From Bacteroidota bacterium (GTDB lineage: Bacteria; Bacteroidota; Bacteroidia; Sphingobacteriales; Sphingobacteriaceae), in assembly GCA_040387995.1 (NCBI GenBank), contig JAZKCT010000055.1, forward strand, positions 5,372 to 69,371: a DNA stretch of 64,000 bases, written 5' to 3'. The position numbers and the translations under genes were made by a program. This document shows, piece by piece, positions 4,460-64,000 of the stretch (the first letter of the stretch is position 1; every line of letters begins with the position of its first letter). Below the pieces are notes generated by a model. It did no database searches. It was not told the DNA's origin and worked only from the letters and a program-made list of their open reading frames with translations.

Positions 4460-7252
4460 TTAATAGTTGTTTTTGTAGAATTCCATGTATTTGTTTAACA
4501 GGTCTTTATTGGTCAGTTTTTCAAAGTTCTCTTTACTGACGATAAAGCTGCTGTAGACATTAACAGGAACCTTCATGATCTGTTTTAATTGAGCATCTAT
4601 CCCACTGGCATAGGATTTGGCATCTTCAAAATTACTAAAGTTCCCTACATAAATGAGCTGATCATTGTCAAATTCTTTTATTTGATGCTTTAGGTTGCTT
4701 CCTGAATAATTGCCACGATTGAACTGGCCAATGCCAAAACGGGATGAGCTTAACGTTAACGAGGCATCCGCTACGTCAATAACGTAATAATACACAGTAG
4801 ATTTAGCATTGCTAAACGGTCCCTCTGTCTTGATTTTTTCCGGAGCAACAATTGGAGCTGCAACCGGAGGATTAGGTAGCACTGGAGCTGCTAAGGGGTC
4901 TGTTTTTTTAACGATGTCAGAAACGACTGGCACGGGTGAGCCGACAGATTCCTGCTGTTGCGTAACCACCGTAGAAGTTGCTTTAGTGGCTGGTAGGAAG
5001 GGCGGTTCATTCGGGTCAAAATCCGTGATGGCTATTGGCCTCTTTTTTAATTCATCCAGATGTGCCATGATGTAAGACAAATGTGCCTTAACAAGAGGCG
5101 TAATCAATTTGTCTTCAGGGAACCGGAGGATGATGGAATCGAGGGACTGAATCAGCGCGTTTACATCAGCCGTACGTCCGATAGAAATTGCATTAAGATA
5201 GGCAAACTGCGGAGATAAAAGTCCCTGTGCTGTTTCAGGGCGACCTTTAATTTCTGCTATAACATTGCCGAATTCTTTGCTTGCATACTTGTCAAAAATG
5301 TCATTGTATTTTTTATTCAGCGCTGCCTCAAATTCAGATTGTTTTGCAGAGAAATTAGGATCTGGAATTGTTTTGGCGTAGATGGAGCCAGGAAATTCTG
5401 TGAGTACCTTGCTTTTAAATTCGTTTGATTTGGCCGGGTTTTTCTCTTTATTGATGAGAAATAAACTATAATAGACCGCAGGAAGGTGATTGTTGGACGG
5501 AAATCTTTTTACTAAGGTAGTATAAGTTTCTTCAGCTTCCTCCGGATCCTGAAGCTCCTGCAAATAAAAGCTGGCGATTTCGTAGTAAGCATCGATAATT
5601 TTTTGATTCGATTGGGTGAGTAAATCAGGAGTAACCGGCAGTGCGTCCGTATATTGCTTGACGAGAGTTGCCTTGTCTTTTACAAGAGGAAGTGCCTCGC
5701 CAGTTGCCGCTGGATCAGCAGCAATGCTGTTTGCGAGGTCCTGTGTAGTTTCCTGAGCGGAAGATCTCATGCTCTGACGCCAGTTGTTTTCCAATTTTCG
5801 GCCACCCCATTTTTTCTTAAAATCATTGAAACCGATACTGACTGCAGTTGGGTTACTGAAATAGAAAGAGTTTTGCGATTGATTTTTATTGCCTTGACTC
5901 GCACCAAAAGCCGCAGGCATGTTGGCGGAGGTATTGTTTTCATTTGGCTGTTGGGATGCTTGTACAGGCGGATTGGCCAATGCCTCTATCAACGGAGCCC
6001 GGCTCGCTTCTGGCTGCCTTGCAATATATTGTAGGGTATCTTCGGTAGCAATGATCTGGAGACGATTGGTCAGATAGGCCAGATTTTGCGTTTTTTTAGC
6101 AATCAAATCATATCCGGGGTAGCTTTTAGGCAGCGTAGCTATGGTACTGTCGTAATAGGATTTTGCCTCGGGATAATTTTTGAACTGTTTGAAATTCAGA
6201 TCTGCAATACGGAGGTAGGATAATCCTTTTTGATACAAATTGGCGGTACTCCGCTGGATAGAAAGCTGGTAGAATTTTTTTGCCTCATCGTATTCCTCCT
6301 TCGACGCATGTGCTTCGGCTACCTGGAAATAGATCTGATCATTATAATCTAAATTCTTATCGTCTTTTAACAAACTAAGCAATTCATCTTCGTTCGTTTT
6401 TCCTGTTTTGCCCTGCAAACCGCGCAGTTTGATCTGATTGAGGTTTGCATTGAAATACATTTCAAATGGCGCATTACTGCGCTCGACCTTTCTGTAGTTT
6501 TTTGATGCTTCGCCATAATTTTTCTGGCTTTCAAACAACTGACCAAGAATGTATGTCCATCTAATCTTATTTTGGTTCTCAGCATTTGATTTTACGGCAT
6601 CCTTAAGATAGGAAATGGCAGCTTCATTGTTTTTGAGATAGATGCACATCTGTGCCAGTGTAGCGAGCGGTTCTGATCGGTTTCTTTTGGCTTTTACAAT
6701 TGGCATAATGGCTTCCATCGTATCTAAAACCTGGTTGGCCTCTGCAATGCGTTTAAGTTGCATCAGGCTTCTTGCTTTCCAGTTGAGCGCTTCCAGATAG
6801 CTGCCTGTATTGTTTTTATACGTTTTAATGGTGTAGTCGAAATATTCTGCGGCGTTGAAATAGCTGCCGTTGTAAAAGTTTGCCTTGCCCAGCAAGAGAT
6901 AAGCATCATCAAGATAATTGCTATAGTTCTTTTCGAGGATAATGTTCTGGGCTTTTTTTATAATGTCGTCCATCGGCTTGAGATTTAAAGAGGCTCCAGG
7001 AAACGAACTGTCGTTTTCCGGTCCGAGATAAACCGGTAGAATTTGGTCATAATTATCTACGTAGGTTTCAGTAAGCTCTTGCTGGTGAGCCGAGAGTGTT
7101 GCTTTTGCATTGTACAAATAATTGTACCTGGCGGTAAGGTTTTGCAATGCTCTTGAAGTTGCGGTATCTCTTTGTGAACTGCATGAACAGATCATACATA
7201 GACCGAAGCTAAATAGTAGTATCTTTAAATTGCTTGTGGCGTGCTGTTTCAA
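4460..7252 (-). CDS. TPR-repeat lipoprotein, SprE/PorW-like (type IX secretion/gliding)
   Basis: Lipobox-like CSCS, NLTARYNYLYNA and YLDDAYLLLGKANFY motifs, many TPRs, WG.RKLENNWR motif; 1 bp from the PBP1A gene. Confidence 0.65.
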   Translation of the reverse strand: MKQHATSNLKILLFSFGLCMICSCSSQRDTATSRALQNLTARYNYLYNAKATLSAHQQELTETYVDNYDQILPVYLGPENDSSFPGASLNLKPMDDIIKKAQNIILEKNYSNYLDDAYLLLGKANFYNGSYFNAAEYFDYTIKTYKNNTGSYLEALNWKARSLMQLKRIAEANQVLDTMEAIMPIVKAKRNRSEPLATLAQMCIYLKNNEAAISYLKDAVKSNAENQNKIRWTYILGQLFESQKNYGEASKNYRKVERSNAPFEMYFNANLNQIKLRGLQGKTGKTNEDELLSLLKDDKNLDYNDQIYFQVAEAHASKEEYDEAKKFYQLSIQRSTANLYQKGLSYLRIADLNFKQFKNYPEAKSYYDSTIATLPKSYPGYDLIAKKTQNLAYLTNRLQIIATEDTLQYIARQPEASRAPLIEALANPPVQASQQPNENNTSANMPAAFGASQGNKNQSQNSFYFSNPTAVSIGFNDFKKKWGGRKLENNWRQSMRSSAQETTQDLANSIAADPAATGEALPLVKDKATLVKQYTDALPVTPDLLTQSNQKIIDAYYEIASFYLQELQDPEEAEETYTTLVKRFPSNNHLPAVYYSLFLINKEKNPAKSNEFKSKVLTEFPGSIYAKTIPDPNFSAKQSEFEAALNKKYNDIFDKYASKEFGNVIAEIKGRPETAQGLLSPQFAYLNAISIGRTADVNALIQSLDSIILRFPEDKLITPLVKAHLSYIMAHLDELKKRPIAITDFDPNEPPFLPATKATSTVVTQQQESVGSPVPVVSDIVKKTDPLAAPVLPNPPVAAPIVAPEKIKTEGPFSNAKSTVYYYVIDVADASLTLSSSRFGIGQFNRGNYSGSNLKHQIKEFDNDQLIYVGNFSNFEDAKSYASGIDAQLKQIMKVPVNVYSSFIVSKENFEKLTNKDLLNKYMEFYKNNY

Positions 7253-60277: not shown

Positions 60278-60661
60278 TTAAACACGTTCAGCAACAGCGA
60301 ACGCTAAAGTTAAAATTTCAGAATGTGTGATAGTAACATGCCATTTGTTGATACCGAATTTGTCACTGAGGGTTTTGACTTTTCCTGAAAGTTTTACCTC
60401 CGGCTGGCCGTTTGGAGAGCGAATGATATCAATGTCTTTAAGGGAAATGTCATCCTGCATTCCCGTTCCAAGGCACTTTAATATCGCCTCTTTTGCAGCG
60501 AAACGCCCCGCAATGAAATTGTCTTTAGAAGCGTGTGCATGAAATAGCGCTAATTCACTTTCTGACAGGATCCTGCTAGGAAAATTACCCTGTGTGTCCC
60601 AGGCAAGTAATTTGCTGTTTTGGTCGTGTTGAACAATATCACTTCCGATTCCAATGATCAT
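60278..60661 (-). CDS. acpS: AcpS-type 4'-phosphopantetheinyl transferase (holo-ACP synthase)
   Basis: MIIGIGSDIV, AGRFAAKEAILKCLGTG, NGQPEVKL, VTITHS motifs. Confidence 0.88.
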   Translation of the reverse strand: MIIGIGSDIVQHDQNSKLLAWDTQGNFPSRILSESELALFHAHASKDNFIAGRFAAKEAILKCLGTGMQDDISLKDIDIIRSPNGQPEVKLSGKVKTLSDKFGINKWHVTITHSEILTLAFAVAERV

Positions 60662-60672
60662 GGGACAGGCAA

Positions 60673-61263
60673 TTAATTTATTGCCAGGTAATCGATTTCT
60701 TTTGTTAAAAGATTAAAGTTGACACGACCGCCTCCATTATTTATTAACAACCGGAACATATCATAAGCTTTTAAAATAGCCTTTTCCCATTCTTTGGAAG
60801 TACGTGCGTTGACTTCAAAATTCTCAGTCATTTCCTTAACGATTCGTAGCGTCGTACGTGATACTTTAGAAGCGCCCTCAAAATACTTTTTACGCTTTGC
60901 CTCATTAAAAATGACCATAGATAGCGCTTCTTCTGTTATAGTTGCCCTTGCTCCATCTTCAATTTCATCTAGTAAGACATCGCTTTTGCGCTTACGCTTC
61001 ATCATGGCACGGGTACAAGGTGACCAGCCAAGCAGGGTAGCAAAGGTGTAGTGAAAAATATCGTGATAACGGTAGAAATCATTGCTGTAAGCATTATCAT
61101 TGATGACATCCCCAATCTGCTCATCGTCATTGAGTACAACACGCACTTCTTCCCTGATCCCATTTCCTACCTCATAAAAAGAGACAGAAAAGGACCGCGG
61201 GATTTGTTCCTCAGGCTTACAGCCTGCATCAAAATAACTATTTTGCTTTTTTGATCGTGTCAT
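60673..61263 (-). CDS. Stand-alone MazG C-terminal (MazG_C) domain protein
   Basis: EQIPRSF, IGD.INDNAY..D.YRYHDIFH...A.LLGWSP..RAMMKRKRKS...DEIEDGARA.ITEEALS; no N-terminal MazG helical domain. Confidence 0.75.
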   Translation of the reverse strand: MTRSKKQNSYFDAGCKPEEQIPRSFSVSFYEVGNGIREEVRVVLNDDEQIGDVINDNAYSNDFYRYHDIFHYTFATLLGWSPCTRAMMKRKRKSDVLLDEIEDGARATITEEALSMVIFNEAKRKKYFEGASKVSRTTLRIVKEMTENFEVNARTSKEWEKAILKAYDMFRLLINNGGGRVNFNLLTKEIDYLAIN

Positions 61264-62092
61264 TTTTTATTTCGTTAGCTAATATACTATCTATTTTTTG
61301 AACCAGAACCTTATCAGTTAATGTTTTACGTATTTCGGTGATAACTTCCTCTGTTGATTCTTTAGATTTTCTGCCATCCGCGAATCCCCGGTCATAGGCT
61401 ACCCAATCCCAACCTAACTTTAAAGCTATCGCAATAAAAAGGCCAATGATAATTTTATATAACCAGTCGTTGCGATCTTTTTTCTCGTCTGATTTTACAA
61501 TCTTTTCAGAAAGGGATTGTTCAACGGCTACAATTTTATCTAACAGAGCTTTTGGCGAAGTCAGTTCTCCCCGTTTTAAAAACTCAATATATTTTGGCGG
61601 AATATGATCGAGTTTTTTAAAATGATCGTTGTTGTCATTGTAAGCTTCATCTTCGCTTAGTTCATGCTTCATCTCCGCAAACCAAATCGGGAAATAAGGT
61701 TCGCCAAAATTAAGTACAATTGTAGAAGGCCCTGCATTGTATACAGAAAATAGCAAATGGTCATTGAAACCAGGGTCAACATGAAAACCAGATACGTTAA
61801 TGAGACCCTTTAGCTTTTCTCCGGCTTTGATAGAAATAAAGGCAATTTTGTCTTTTGGAATACTGACCTTTTCTTTTGTTAGCAACAAGGCAAACTGTCC
61901 TGGATTGATATCAATCTGCCGGTCGTCTTTATCCAATGTTTCTACCTTTCCTGTCTTAGAGTCAGTGAGGTAAACTTCTTTGCCAAGGGATAATTCATAC
62001 GCGCCGTTTTTTACCCTTCGGGCATCAAATGGATCTATCACGTTTGATGTTGTTTGTAAGACCAGTAATTCTTTTACACCTAAAAATGCCAT
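61238..62092 (-). CDS. dCTP deaminase/dUTPase-fold protein with substituted deaminase residues and a C-terminal TM helix
   Basis: AYELSLG, INPGQFALLLT.E.V, GLINVSGFHVDPGF, VYNAG; hydrophobic WLYKIIIGLFIAIALKLGWDWV near the C-terminus. Confidence 0.8.
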   Translation of the reverse strand: MAFLGVKELLVLQTTSNVIDPFDARRVKNGAYELSLGKEVYLTDSKTGKVETLDKDDRQIDINPGQFALLLTKEKVSIPKDKIAFISIKAGEKLKGLINVSGFHVDPGFNDHLLFSVYNAGPSTIVLNFGEPYFPIWFAEMKHELSEDEAYNDNNDHFKKLDHIPPKYIEFLKRGELTSPKALLDKIVAVEQSLSEKIVKSDEKKDRNDWLYKIIIGLFIAIALKLGWDWVAYDRGFADGRKSKESTEEVITEIRKTLTDKVLVQKIDSILANEIKNDTIKKAK

Positions 62093-62133: not shown

Positions 62134-63222
62134 TCAGTCCAATATTTCTATCAACCGCGGAGCCTGCTGTATCCTGTGGTTAATTCCCCATTTTGGCGGG
62201 AACCAGTAATCAATTTTTGAGGCGTTGCTCCGAAATTTCTGCTTAATGTTTACCCGTTCACTTGCTCCTTTGATGTCAGGATGTTTCACTCTGGCATATT
62301 TGTCCACTTCACAAAATAAATTCTGACAATCTATCAACTGCAGCTTTCTAGTCCAAAGATCTTTAAACTCTAAACCCAGACGTTCGAACTCCCGTTCCTG
62401 GCTATCGGTCATCAGTTTAATAATCTCCACATTATTCAGTCCCCCAGTATTGGAAAAACATTTACTGATTCCTCCTTTTGCGCCAGGACCTGGCACAACA
62501 AAAGATGATTCAGAAAAATCAGTTAGGGTAGAATAATTGATGTCAATTACCAACTGATAAGCCAGGAAGTCTCCAAGTCCAGGAAACCTTTTGATCAATT
62601 CAAACGCATGTTGCATATTCTTGGCAGTAACCAGATGCTCATGCGTATCCTCTGCAATCATGAACTCGATTAACTTAAGGTGGTTGGAGTGCTTTCTGGT
62701 ATAACCAAAATAAGAGCCTCCTGACGGCATGATGTAAGCAGCCGAATAGATTCGCTCGCCGGCCAACATGGCTATCGTTAAGATCTTATCATAAGCTTCA
62801 AAATTATAGTCTTCGAAAGTTATCGTTCCAAATTCTGCAAGAAGTAACTCCCAGGTATCTATTTTGTTGAATAGCTTAAATACTAAAATGCGGAAAAGTA
62901 TTTCCTTAGGTGTATTTGGAAACTGATCATTGTAGATCACGTTTTTAATGAGGTATTGACTGACCCTATCCGCTGCCCGATACGCATTTGTAAACTTGTA
63001 TTTATTTAAAATATCGTCATCTGACCAGGGTGCACTCAGACCGTTAAACCTGTTAAAAAATGCTTCCTGGCGCAGTGCAGCAAACTTCCAATAAGAGATG
63101 TATACGTCCGTAACAATAGCAGGAGCAAGAGAAACATGAATATTTATCGTATGCCCGGTAGTGTTTGCTGCCGGGGCTGTAGTTGATTTACTTTCTTTGT
63201 TTTGTTTTGTCATGACCTGCAA
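62134..63222 (-). CDS. 5-hydroxymethyl-dU DNA kinase-like protein (aGPT-Pplase clade 1 / helical domain family)
   Basis: YWKFAALRQ..F, W.DD.IL..YKFTNAYRAADRVSQY, FKLFNK..TW, YSAAY, FPGLGDFLAYQ..ID.NY, GPGA.GG, LIDCQNLFCEVDKYAR. Confidence 0.8.
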   Translation of the reverse strand: MQVMTKQNKESKSTTAPAANTTGHTINIHVSLAPAIVTDVYISYWKFAALRQEAFFNRFNGLSAPWSDDDILNKYKFTNAYRAADRVSQYLIKNVIYNDQFPNTPKEILFRILVFKLFNKIDTWELLLAEFGTITFEDYNFEAYDKILTIAMLAGERIYSAAYIMPSGGSYFGYTRKHSNHLKLIEFMIAEDTHEHLVTAKNMQHAFELIKRFPGLGDFLAYQLVIDINYSTLTDFSESSFVVPGPGAKGGISKCFSNTGGLNNVEIIKLMTDSQEREFERLGLEFKDLWTRKLQLIDCQNLFCEVDKYARVKHPDIKGASERVNIKQKFRSNASKIDYWFPPKWGINHRIQQAPRLIEILD

Positions 63223-63231
63223 AGATAACCG

Positions 63232-63978
63232 CTATAGAATAGAACTTAAATTAATTCTGTCCAATAAATCCTTGGCAGATGTCTTTCCCAGATTGTCCAG
63301 TTGTTCCACCCCGATAAAGCAATTCAACCGCTCGAATTCAAGACCAGTTTCCTGGGCGATAAATTTTCCTAGATTGATCAGTCCCAGCCAATTTCCGTAG
63401 GCCCGGCGGTAAAAAAACTGAATCGCATAAAAACTATTCAGCACCAGGCCACCTGTTTCTGATTTGTAAAATGTAACATGCTGAAGGCAGGGGAATCTCT
63501 GGTATGGGCCGTTGGTATGGTCCTGTTCAGGATCAAAGATTGATGCCTGGAGCTTGGATCTCCGTTTATTAGTGGTGCTTAAAATAGAGGTAATGATCAT
63601 CTCCAGCTGGTTGATCGGCTGTCCAGCATTTTGATAAGCGATCATTCTTTGGAAATAAGTACCCTTGTGATTACTGGAATCTATGCGCCTGATACGTTGA
63701 TAATTTCGCATATATTGGTCGTACAGTTCATGGCGATCCCATCCGCAAAACTGATAAAGGGATTGCGGGAAAATTGTTTCTGAAACAGTTTGTATCGATG
63801 GTAAATCGTGACTGGCCAGATCAGCATCCAACAATTCCCGAACATCTGAAGATTCCACAAAGTCAGTAAGGGTCAATAATAGTGGACTAATTTCTTTTCC
63901 AGAGTTACTCACCAGCGTATTCAGTACTTCAGTCCAGGCTTCTGATAAATTGGTGTTTTTAATAAATAATGGTTCCAT
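63232..63978 (-). CDS. Divergent thymidylate synthase-fold protein (dUMP hydroxymethylase-like)
   Basis: TVSETIFP, GTYFQRM, ASIFDP, FPCL catalytic-Cys motif, AYGNW equivalent of the TS PFN motif. Confidence 0.75.
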   Translation of the reverse strand: MEPLFIKNTNLSEAWTEVLNTLVSNSGKEISPLLLTLTDFVESSDVRELLDADLASHDLPSIQTVSETIFPQSLYQFCGWDRHELYDQYMRNYQRIRRIDSSNHKGTYFQRMIAYQNAGQPINQLEMIITSILSTTNKRRSKLQASIFDPEQDHTNGPYQRFPCLQHVTFYKSETGGLVLNSFYAIQFFYRRAYGNWLGLINLGKFIAQETGLEFERLNCFIGVEQLDNLGKTSAKDLLDRINLSSIL

Positions 63979-64000
63979 AAATTGCTAATCTAGATCGTTT

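Follow-up and report, generated by a model that had tools for sequence, protein, structure and literature searches.

A 64,000-nt stretch of the genome of a Sphingobacteriaceae bacterium (Bacteroidota; GCA_040387995.1, contig JAZKCT010000055.1, forward-strand positions 5,372 to 69,371; hereafter the window) encodes DCD-TM, a protein that combines a dUTPase/dCTP deaminase (Dcd)-type head with a predicted transmembrane (TM) helix. We propose that DCD-TM is a single-pass, N-in anchored member of the dUTPase/Dcd superfamily. It is a core, conserved part of an operon that is carried by a conjugative element and is probably a conflict system gated by XRE and ImmA and centered on uracil or hydroxymethyluracil (hmU). 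According to the explanation that we favor, and in which we place middling confidence, a cytoplasmic trimeric head would bind a pyrimidine deoxynucleoside triphosphate (dNTP), cleave it to the monophosphate (dNMP) and pyrophosphate (PPi), and act with the neighboring MazG_C protein at the inner membrane.

Fold, nucleotide pocket, and predicted membrane helix of DCD-TM

DCD-TM has the fold of the Dcd/dUTPase superfamily. Its gene (61238..62092, minus strand, as are all window features below) is an open reading frame (ORF) of 284 codons plus a stop, exactly as delimited in the original prediction, which had been made from the sequence alone. The product matches the Pfam DCD family (PF22769) over residues 16–140 (E=1.1e-11, 45.5 bits; cut-off 27). 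The AlphaFold2 (AF2) monomer model has a pLDDT of 87, with most of the head above 90, and comprises a beta-barrel (residues 1–140), an ordered lid, a short helix (166–174), and a single continuous helix (180–276). The barrel, which is supported by both AF2 and Foldseek, corresponds to the predicted cytoplasmic head (61673..62092).

Archaeal Dcd-type dUTPases are the best match to DCD-TM in both sequence and structure (phmmer E=1e-13; profile E=2e-19). The top Foldseek matches are 8y1w and 9ln0/9ln3 (E~1e-12, root mean square deviation 1.6–1.9 Å, TM-score 0.84–0.87), and the AF2 model matches Dcd structures at E~1e-11. The first of these entries is the T. pacificus dUTPase with dUMP and the others are P. 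furiosus P45; all are Dcd-type dUTPases. They share with DCD-TM the barrel, motif 1 (aYEL here versus GYDL), E74, the VDPG Asp, the YNA motif, the lid Tyr, and the absence of the deaminase Glu, which in 8y1w and 9ln0 is replaced by Met. Thus, loss of the deaminase triad is normal among the nearest catalytic relatives. By analogy with this fold, DCD-TM may form a homotrimer whose active sites lie between neighboring subunits. In Dcd and P45, the C-terminal lid (PYRGNYQG) is homologous to the lid/arm segment of DCD-TM (residues 141–179; 61556..61672), which is spanned by the profile alignments to 9ln0 and 8y1w and is ordered in the AF2 model. This segment bears Y151, H157, I164, and a GELxSP motif, with Y151, I164, S179, and P180 conserved.

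The DCD-TM family also differs from the archaeal dUTPases in several respects. Its motif 2 reads K-A-G-x-K-L-K-G rather than R-S-S-L-A-R-E-G; it has its own invariant residues (N99, H104, Q66, and W137); and it has gained a C-terminal extension of ~145 amino acids comprising a stalk, a TM helix, and a tail. Furthermore, DCD-TM is encoded in a mobile multigene operon and, unlike the archaeal enzymes, is not a housekeeping protein.

The catalytic residues of dCTP deaminases have been lost across the DCD-TM family. In HMMER alignments to E. coli Dcd chains (1xs1 and 1xs4) and archaeal chains, R110, S111, S112, R115, and E138 of Dcd correspond to K89, A90, G91, L94, and S116, while the motif-3 Asp (D128) is kept as D106. 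These alignments bear out the earlier claim that S111, R115, and E138 had become A, L, and S with the DPG Asp retained. Among 142 representatives that are pairwise no more than 50% identical, the Glu138 position is occupied by S (104), A (27), T (7), G (3), or C (1), and by E or D in none. The Ser111 position holds A (86), F (36), S (9), Y (5), T (5), or L (1), making A or F the residue in 122/142, and the Arg115 position is chiefly F or L. Judging by this clade-wide loss of the catalytic Ser, Arg, and Glu, DCD-TM cannot deaminate dCTP. As an internal control, the housekeeping Dcd of the same genome (contig 28) retains K-S-S-T-G-R and T-L-E-I-S. E. coli Dcd and DCD-TM have in common PF22769 and its fold, the Asp128 equivalent, and a YN...Q-type lid; DCD-TM differs in lacking S111/R115/E138, in scoring below the cut-off of the dCTP-deaminase equivalog TIGR02274 (60.5 versus 92.8 bits), and in being an accessory protein with a predicted membrane anchor.

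No region of the family is better conserved than the variant pocket, which indicates that this site has been maintained rather than left to decay. This motif (residues 86–120, ISIKAGEKLKGLINVSGFHVDPGFNDHLLFSVYNA; 61733..61837) is delimited by alignments, conserved columns, and clade counts, and its key residues are K89, A90, K93, L94, N99, H104, D106, and S116. Over 49 sequences sharing 33–89% identity, the invariant positions are Y32, Q66, E74, K93, the run N99-VSGFHVDP-107, N119, and W137; D106 sits within that run. K93, a new feature relative to E. coli Dcd, is K in 141/142 representatives. With small or hydrophobic residues (S/A, A/F, and L/F) at the former deaminase positions, the pocket plausibly has more room around C4 and C5 of the base. 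The family retains the motif-3 Asp, the motif-1 carboxylate E33 (aligned to the Asp of GYDL in archaeal dUTPases), a basic cluster (K89, K93, K95, and H104), and the lid Tyr, and for these reasons DCD-TM most likely binds, and probably cleaves, a pyrimidine dNTP. The candidate ligands are dUTP, dTTP, or a 5-substituted dUTP: D106 and E33 would cleave the dNTP to dNMP and PPi, with the basic cluster holding the phosphates. We took residue roles from general dUTPase/Dcd knowledge and from PMC4827122; a literature search found no residue-level paper for 8y1w or 9ln0. The original prediction was thus correct that all three deaminase residues are lost, but decay into a sensor does not follow, since the nearest real dUTPases also lack the Glu.

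DCD-TM is predicted to be anchored in the membrane by a single helix. Residues 180–209 (61466..61555), part of the continuous AF2 helix, form a stalk from the head to the membrane and possibly a trimeric coiled coil. The predicted TM helix follows (residues 210–233, WLYKIIIGLFIAIALKLGWDWVAY; 61394..61465), with a best 19-residue Kyte-Doolittle window of 1.91, and then a helical, variable tail of 51 amino acids in the AF2 model (residues 234–284; 61241..61393), which would be extracytoplasmic. This layout agrees with the helical linker, TM helix (placed at about 61400–61470), and short tail described earlier. A helix of TM grade after the domain is found in 66/74 locus homologs and in 136/142 representatives. 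The sequence of the helix is not conserved, and its hydrophobicity reaches 2.7–2.9 in distant phyla. Lys and Arg are enriched on its N-terminal flank (54 homologs versus 4, p=2e-10), so that the positive-inside rule predicts a cytoplasmic head. The median tail is 55 amino acids long, but no more than 2–31 residues remain in distant homologs, suggesting that the tail is dispensable; in these short-tailed proteins, the helix appears to act as a tail anchor.

DCD-TM belongs to a large and broadly distributed family. We detected 2,226 word-indexed homologs, and 412 DCD-TM loci from several phyla among one-genome-per-species contigs (~185,000 species genomes). An exhaustive profile search returned 5,358 hits, 796 of them at E<=1e-30 (clusters at 50% identity). 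The architecture is uniform, with no other effector domain swapped in among the top 150 representatives, and strong purifying selection acts on DCD-TM across phyla. A search of 50,697 phage records yielded no Dcd-TM homolog, only plain archaeal-virus Dcd domains of ~30% identity, and MazG_C was absent from the phage records searched. MazG_C was present in 3/401 sampled genomes of the phylum, a sporadic distribution that fits mobile accessory cargo. Because the genome already encodes canonical Dcd and canonical Dut, DCD-TM is its third, accessory superfamily member. At three loci from metagenome-assembled genomes (MAGs; L071, L078, and L081), the DCD-TM frame is truncated to 118–132 amino acids while the neighbors are intact; either faulty assembly or selection against the gene could explain this. 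The family is mislabeled as a whole: its members are annotated as dCTP deaminases, whereas none is predicted to be able to deaminate and nearly all are predicted to be membrane-anchored. A corrected family description would prevent wrong metabolic inference.

The MazG_C partner and the surrounding operon

The position of DCD-TM relative to MazG_C suggests a role in nucleotide handling. The MazG_C gene (60673..61263; 196 amino acids; PF18722 E=1.9e-65) shares 26 nt with the end of the DCD-TM gene, so the two are translationally coupled, and their products would work jointly. MazG_C directly follows DCD-TM in 54 loci; in every one of them it is a standalone protein (~190–206 amino acids), and 44 of these loci have overlapping genes. 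Where MazG_C is not adjacent to DCD-TM, it is instead fused to MazG (PF03819), in 11/11 loci. This pattern indicates that DCD-TM occupies the position of the dNTP-pyrophosphatase domain relative to MazG_C. The DCD-TM/MazG_C pair repeats the order of the MazG-MazG_C fusions, a dNTP-pyrophosphatase-fold module followed by MazG_C. It differs from them in pairing MazG_C with a beta-barrel rather than the all-alpha MazG, in consisting of separate overlapping genes, and in the predicted membrane anchor of DCD-TM. In about 13 loci from other phyla, the MazG_C slot directly after DCD-TM is taken by a thymidylate-kinase (Tmk)-like gene. Together, these arrangements favor a dNTP-to-dNMP enzyme or nucleotide-handling partner over a terminal effector. 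They also provide a concrete hypothesis from which biochemical work on MazG_C could begin.

MazG_C is probably an uncharacterized enzyme fold, and the label "predicted kinase" that it carries is unverified. Its AF2 model is confident (pLDDT 88.8, pTM 0.87), with no PDB match by sequence and none by Foldseek (best E=0.28). The invariant cluster comprises Y64, R65, H67, D68, H71, R85, K91–S94, D99, D103, E111, and E112. Among the 11 fusion loci, two encode triple HMUDK_hel-MazG-MazG_C fusions, which suggests that the three activities act as one unit. These triple fusions are found in MAGs of Isosphaeraceae and Verrucomicrobiales (L079:3472–5508 (+) and L072:7136–9118 (-); 678 and 660 amino acids).

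The partners of DCD-TM are conserved beyond the window. We counted neighborhoods over 80 loci with a DCD-TM homolog and found HMUDK_hel in 73, MazG_C in 63, a thymidylate synthase (TS)-like gene in 50, ImmA in 49, XRE and AcpS in 47 each, and orf97 in 33–37. ORF clustering and Pfam scans resolved three locus types, of which type A is the form seen in the window. Type B (~20 loci) comprises DCD-TM, MazG_C, HMUDK_hel, TIR, and Nmad2, at times with an extra TIR, SLOG, or SIR2-STALD gene; these loci lack XRE and ImmA and retain DCD-TM. Type C, the form with the Tmk-like gene, comprises XRE, ImmA, TS-like, DCD-TM, the kinase-like gene, HMUDK_hel, and a canonical TS. Among type-B loci, immune genes occur at L012:8429–9493, L019:5381–11699, and L045:3229–4689, and include a ThsB-like TIR, a 390-amino-acid TIR, SLOG (LD_cluster2), and SIR2-STALD (ThsA-like). 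Such genes appear to link the DCD-TM module to Thoeris-like immunity.

The window operon contains eight genes in the order orf97, XRE (HTH_3), ImmA (Peptidase_M78), TS-like, HMUDK_hel, DCD-TM, MazG_C, and AcpS. Intergenic spacing ranges from a 26-nt overlap to a 41-nt gap. A scan for promoters and terminators found no minus-strand terminator within the operon but was uninformative overall, as its counts matched chance and it does not cover the promoters of Bacteroidota. The operon is cargo of a CTnDOT-type conjugative element, in which TraM, TraJ, and DUF932 also occur. The 3' end of the ImmA/IrrE gene (Pfam Peptidase_M78) lies at 63985..64000; the rest of ImmA, the XRE repressor, and the carrier-like orf97, assigned by Pfam matches, extend beyond the window end (~63985–65459).

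The TS-like protein (63232..63978; 248 amino acids) is predicted to be a very divergent TS-fold C5-pyrimidine enzyme. It has no Pfam match, scores 51.8 bits against TIGR03283 (below the cut-off), and its sole PDB profile matches, thymidylate synthases and CMP 5-hydroxymethylase, are weak (E~0.4). Its invariant Cys164, within an FPCL motif, aligns with the catalytic Cys of these enzymes. HMUDK_hel (62134..63222; 362 amino acids), a "DNA base hypermodification" protein, matches PF18723 at E=5.7e-106. The Pfam name is misleading, as the window protein is not homologous to the P-loop 5-hydroxymethyldeoxyuridine (5-hmdU) DNA kinase. Its phage homolog is PaMx11 gp50 (locus L089, 4016–4903). PaMx11 gp50 is syntenic with M6 gp55, a helical paralog that is dispensable for in vitro hypermodification; the kinase is a different protein, of the P-loop type.

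The two ends of the operon may be functionally connected. The first gene, orf97 (L002:6166–6459 (-), ~65166–65459 in window numbering), resembles acyl or aminoacyl carrier proteins. Of its 13 weak PDB profile matches, nine are acyl carrier proteins (E 0.06–0.6), and its sole invariant Ser, S43 (GISSQVL), aligns with the phosphopantetheine-attachment Ser. Such an identity would explain the AcpS-type phosphopantetheinyl transferase encoded by the last gene (60278..60661; PF01648 E=2.2e-17). AcpS is not the only such transferase of the genome, since a 214-amino-acid Sfp-type phosphopantetheinyl-transferase-like ORF (L085:787–1431 (-)) adjoins the housekeeping dcd.

Other genes vary between loci. 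A divergently transcribed gene for a 623-amino-acid AAA_21/AAA_15 (OLD/AbiEii-like) ATPase adjoins the window operon (L002:6642–8513 (+), ~65642–67513); none of the other 80 loci has it, so it is a separate, possibly defensive gene. Alphaproteobacterial plasmid variants (Rhizobium pRlX4, L083 3897–4547; Acuticoccus plasmid, L084 7591–8316 and 9015–10843) carry a papain-family Peptidase_C1 gene after ImmA. The Acuticoccus plasmid also encodes a uracil-DNA glycosylase beside its MazG-MazG_C fusion.

Competing explanations for DCD-TM

The original prediction offered two readings of DCD-TM: a membrane-tethered dUTPase or hmdUTPase, and a receptor for a modified dU nucleotide that disrupts the membrane. 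The evidence favors the first, or a related role in nucleotide handling, over the second. Several observations nevertheless weigh against a dNTP-cleaving enzyme. Motif 2 (K89-A90-G91) lacks the phosphate-binding Ser, and the motif-4 Gln is replaced by P135 (or L in the family). With the Ser-Ser/Arg of motif 2 changed to K-A-G-x-K-L as well, canonical dUTPase chemistry is not guaranteed, and DCD-TM falls far short of the dUTPase equivalog NF002598 (13.3 versus 130 bits). A soluble enzyme would have no obvious need for an anchor, yet the anchor is kept in ~96% of the family. The proposed partner, MazG_C, has no PDB relative. The association between adjacency and fusion of MazG_C is strong (Fisher p=1e-11), although the loci are related and the p-value overstates their independence. 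Our notion that DCD-TM simply replaces MazG had to be softened, because DCD-TM and MazG-MazG_C fusions co-occur in 11 loci, including the Acuticoccus plasmid.

A ligand-gated membrane effector is a doubtful alternative. DCD-TM would then be a non-catalytic, trimeric Dcd-fold receptor for a 5-modified dU nucleotide, supplied on infection by the TS-fold protein, MazG_C, and HMUDK_hel; the ligand would rearrange or oligomerize the trimer, and its three TM helices would disrupt the membrane, leading to membrane collapse and abortive infection. The layout of nucleotide-binding domain, stalk, and TM helix would suit such an effector, as would its retention in nearly all representatives and the loss of the motif-2 Ser and motif-4 Gln, both linked to hydrolysis. 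The type-A operon of the window has no other recognizable killing module and is placed under an XRE/ImmA switch, an arrangement common among toxic modules; type-B loci encode a ThsB-like TIR, and Thoeris TIRs make nucleotide signals. However, each chain has one TM helix, which in some homologs is a bare tail anchor with 2–31 residues after it, and the operon encodes no cyclase or known signal synthase and has no PADLOC match. The related DS-4 system described below functions without such a protein, and DCD-TM stands at the front of type-B loci, in the "TS" slot, rather than in a terminal effector slot. From the MazG displacement pattern, one would expect MazG_C to be paired with a pyrophosphatase-like protein, and the absence of effector-domain swaps is likewise at odds with an effector. 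In a variant of the receptor idea, DCD-TM would be a pyrophosphoryl or nucleotidyl transferase. If true, the receptor reading would define a new dUTPase-fold class of sensor-effector and a new modified-pyrimidine immune signal.

We consider it unlikely that DCD-TM is a non-catalytic membrane scaffold or regulator. As a scaffold, it would bind a nucleotide, or MazG_C and HMUDK_hel, and hold the modification machinery at the inner membrane, for instance close to the site of DNA entry or the conjugation apparatus; as a regulator, it would respond to nucleotides in the manner of the trimeric Duts that derepress Stl of SaPIs. The tight translational coupling to MazG_C fits a scaffold, as do the triple fusions, which show that the partners act as one complex, and an anchor that is conserved although its sequence is not. 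Regulation has a precedent in Dut-repressor moonlighting (PMC5593958), and an XRE repressor heads the operon. Type-B loci retain DCD-TM without XRE or ImmA, though, and the invariant polar residues (D106, K93, H104, N99, Q66, and E74) resemble a catalytic or ligand site more than a docking surface.

At the level of the whole system, the integrative and conjugative element (ICE) might modify its own or host DNA with hmdU-derived bases, thereby escaping restriction in recipients, with DCD-TM supplying dUMP or removing dTTP. This idea is compatible with the enzyme role that we favor, but we regard it as rather improbable. It draws on the location of the locus in a CTnDOT-type ICE beside tra genes, on the control of ICE induction by XRE/ImmA modules, and on the resemblance of the gene set to phage thymidine-hypermodification clusters, which serve anti-restriction (PMC8989533); the carrier protein and AcpS would further suggest biosynthesis of an appended group. 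Against it, a homologous operon of TS, kinase, HMUDK_hel, TIR, and Nmad2 genes defended E. coli against phage (PMC13092281), and type-B loci bear immune-type TIR, SLOG, and SIR2 genes. Most loci have no tra genes within 6 kb, and modification of a whole chromosome would call for a dedicated polymerase and dedicated control of the nucleotide pool.

It is extremely improbable that DCD-TM is an ordinary dCTP deaminase or dUTPase with a housekeeping role, or else a pseudogene in decay: although public annotation labels the homologs "dCTP deaminase", we rejected this explanation on the clade-wide loss of Glu, Ser, and Arg, the scores below the TIGR02274 and NF002598 cut-offs, the canonical Dcd and Dut in the same genome, the sporadic mobile distribution, and the purifying selection.

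Comparison with known defense and phage systems

DCD-TM bears a formal likeness to the TM effectors of CBASS, Pycsar, and type II Thoeris, in which a nucleotide-binding domain is likewise followed by a TM segment in a conflict context. It differs from them in lacking a cyclase, in having a single TM helix, and in its enzyme-like operon slot. PADLOC and PADLOC-DB models gave no match for DCD-TM or its three core neighbors. The window operon contains no CD-NTase, Pycsar cyclase, or TIR signal synthase; TIR genes are found in the type-B relatives only.

The operon parallels the gene clusters with which phages such as SPO1, M6, ViI, PaMx11, and SP10 produce hmdU or hypermodified DNA. In the phage hmdU pathway (PMC8989533), a dUMP supplier, a dTTPase, a dUMP hydroxymethylase, and a dNMP kinase handle the nucleotides before other enzymes act on the DNA itself. 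Type-C loci, with their canonical TS and a Tmk-like gene directly after DCD-TM, run parallel to this pathway as well. The operon and these clusters share a TS-fold C5 enzyme, a dNTP-to-dNMP enzyme (the role proposed here for DCD-TM), a kinase slot, and HMUDK_hel. Unlike the phage clusters, the window lacks a clade-2 aGPT-Pplase (AADT) and a P-loop 5-HMUDK, and the locus is cellular, ICE-borne, and free of phage structural genes.

The closest validated relative is DS-4 ("NTTI"), an E. coli system that was identified with DefensePredictor and comprises TS, an adenylate/dNMP-kinase-like protein, HMUDK_hel, TIR, and Nmad2, with a weak phage-defense phenotype (PMC13092281). HMUDK_hel of the window shares 29% identity with the DS-4 protein WP_087900470.1 (E=2e-33), while a BLAST comparison found no similarity between the TS-like protein of the window and the DS-4 TS. 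DS-4 has no Dcd-fold/TM protein and no MazG_C; the shared theme is a TS-fold protein together with nucleotide-handling genes. In turn, the type-A operon of the window lacks TIR and Nmad2 and has XRE/ImmA, the divergent TS-fold protein, AcpS, and the carrier-like protein. The defense phenotype has been shown for DS-4 only.

The DCD-TM cluster is a mobile, probably anti-phage gene set. The same study predicted a "MazG-C / dUTPase / aGPT-Pplase" system (DefensePredictor Fig. S12C; PMC13092281), and this is probably the class to which the window operon belongs, as the domain lists match. As an almost obligatory companion of MazG_C and HMUDK_hel, DCD-TM belongs to a mobile class with one weakly validated relative. 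Its role would reveal either a bacterial uracil/hmU nucleotide chemistry directed against phages or DNA modification by conjugative elements. Type-B loci correspond to the DS-4 operon with DCD-TM and MazG_C in place of TS and the kinase, and have the HMUDK_hel, TIR, and Nmad2 back end in common with it.

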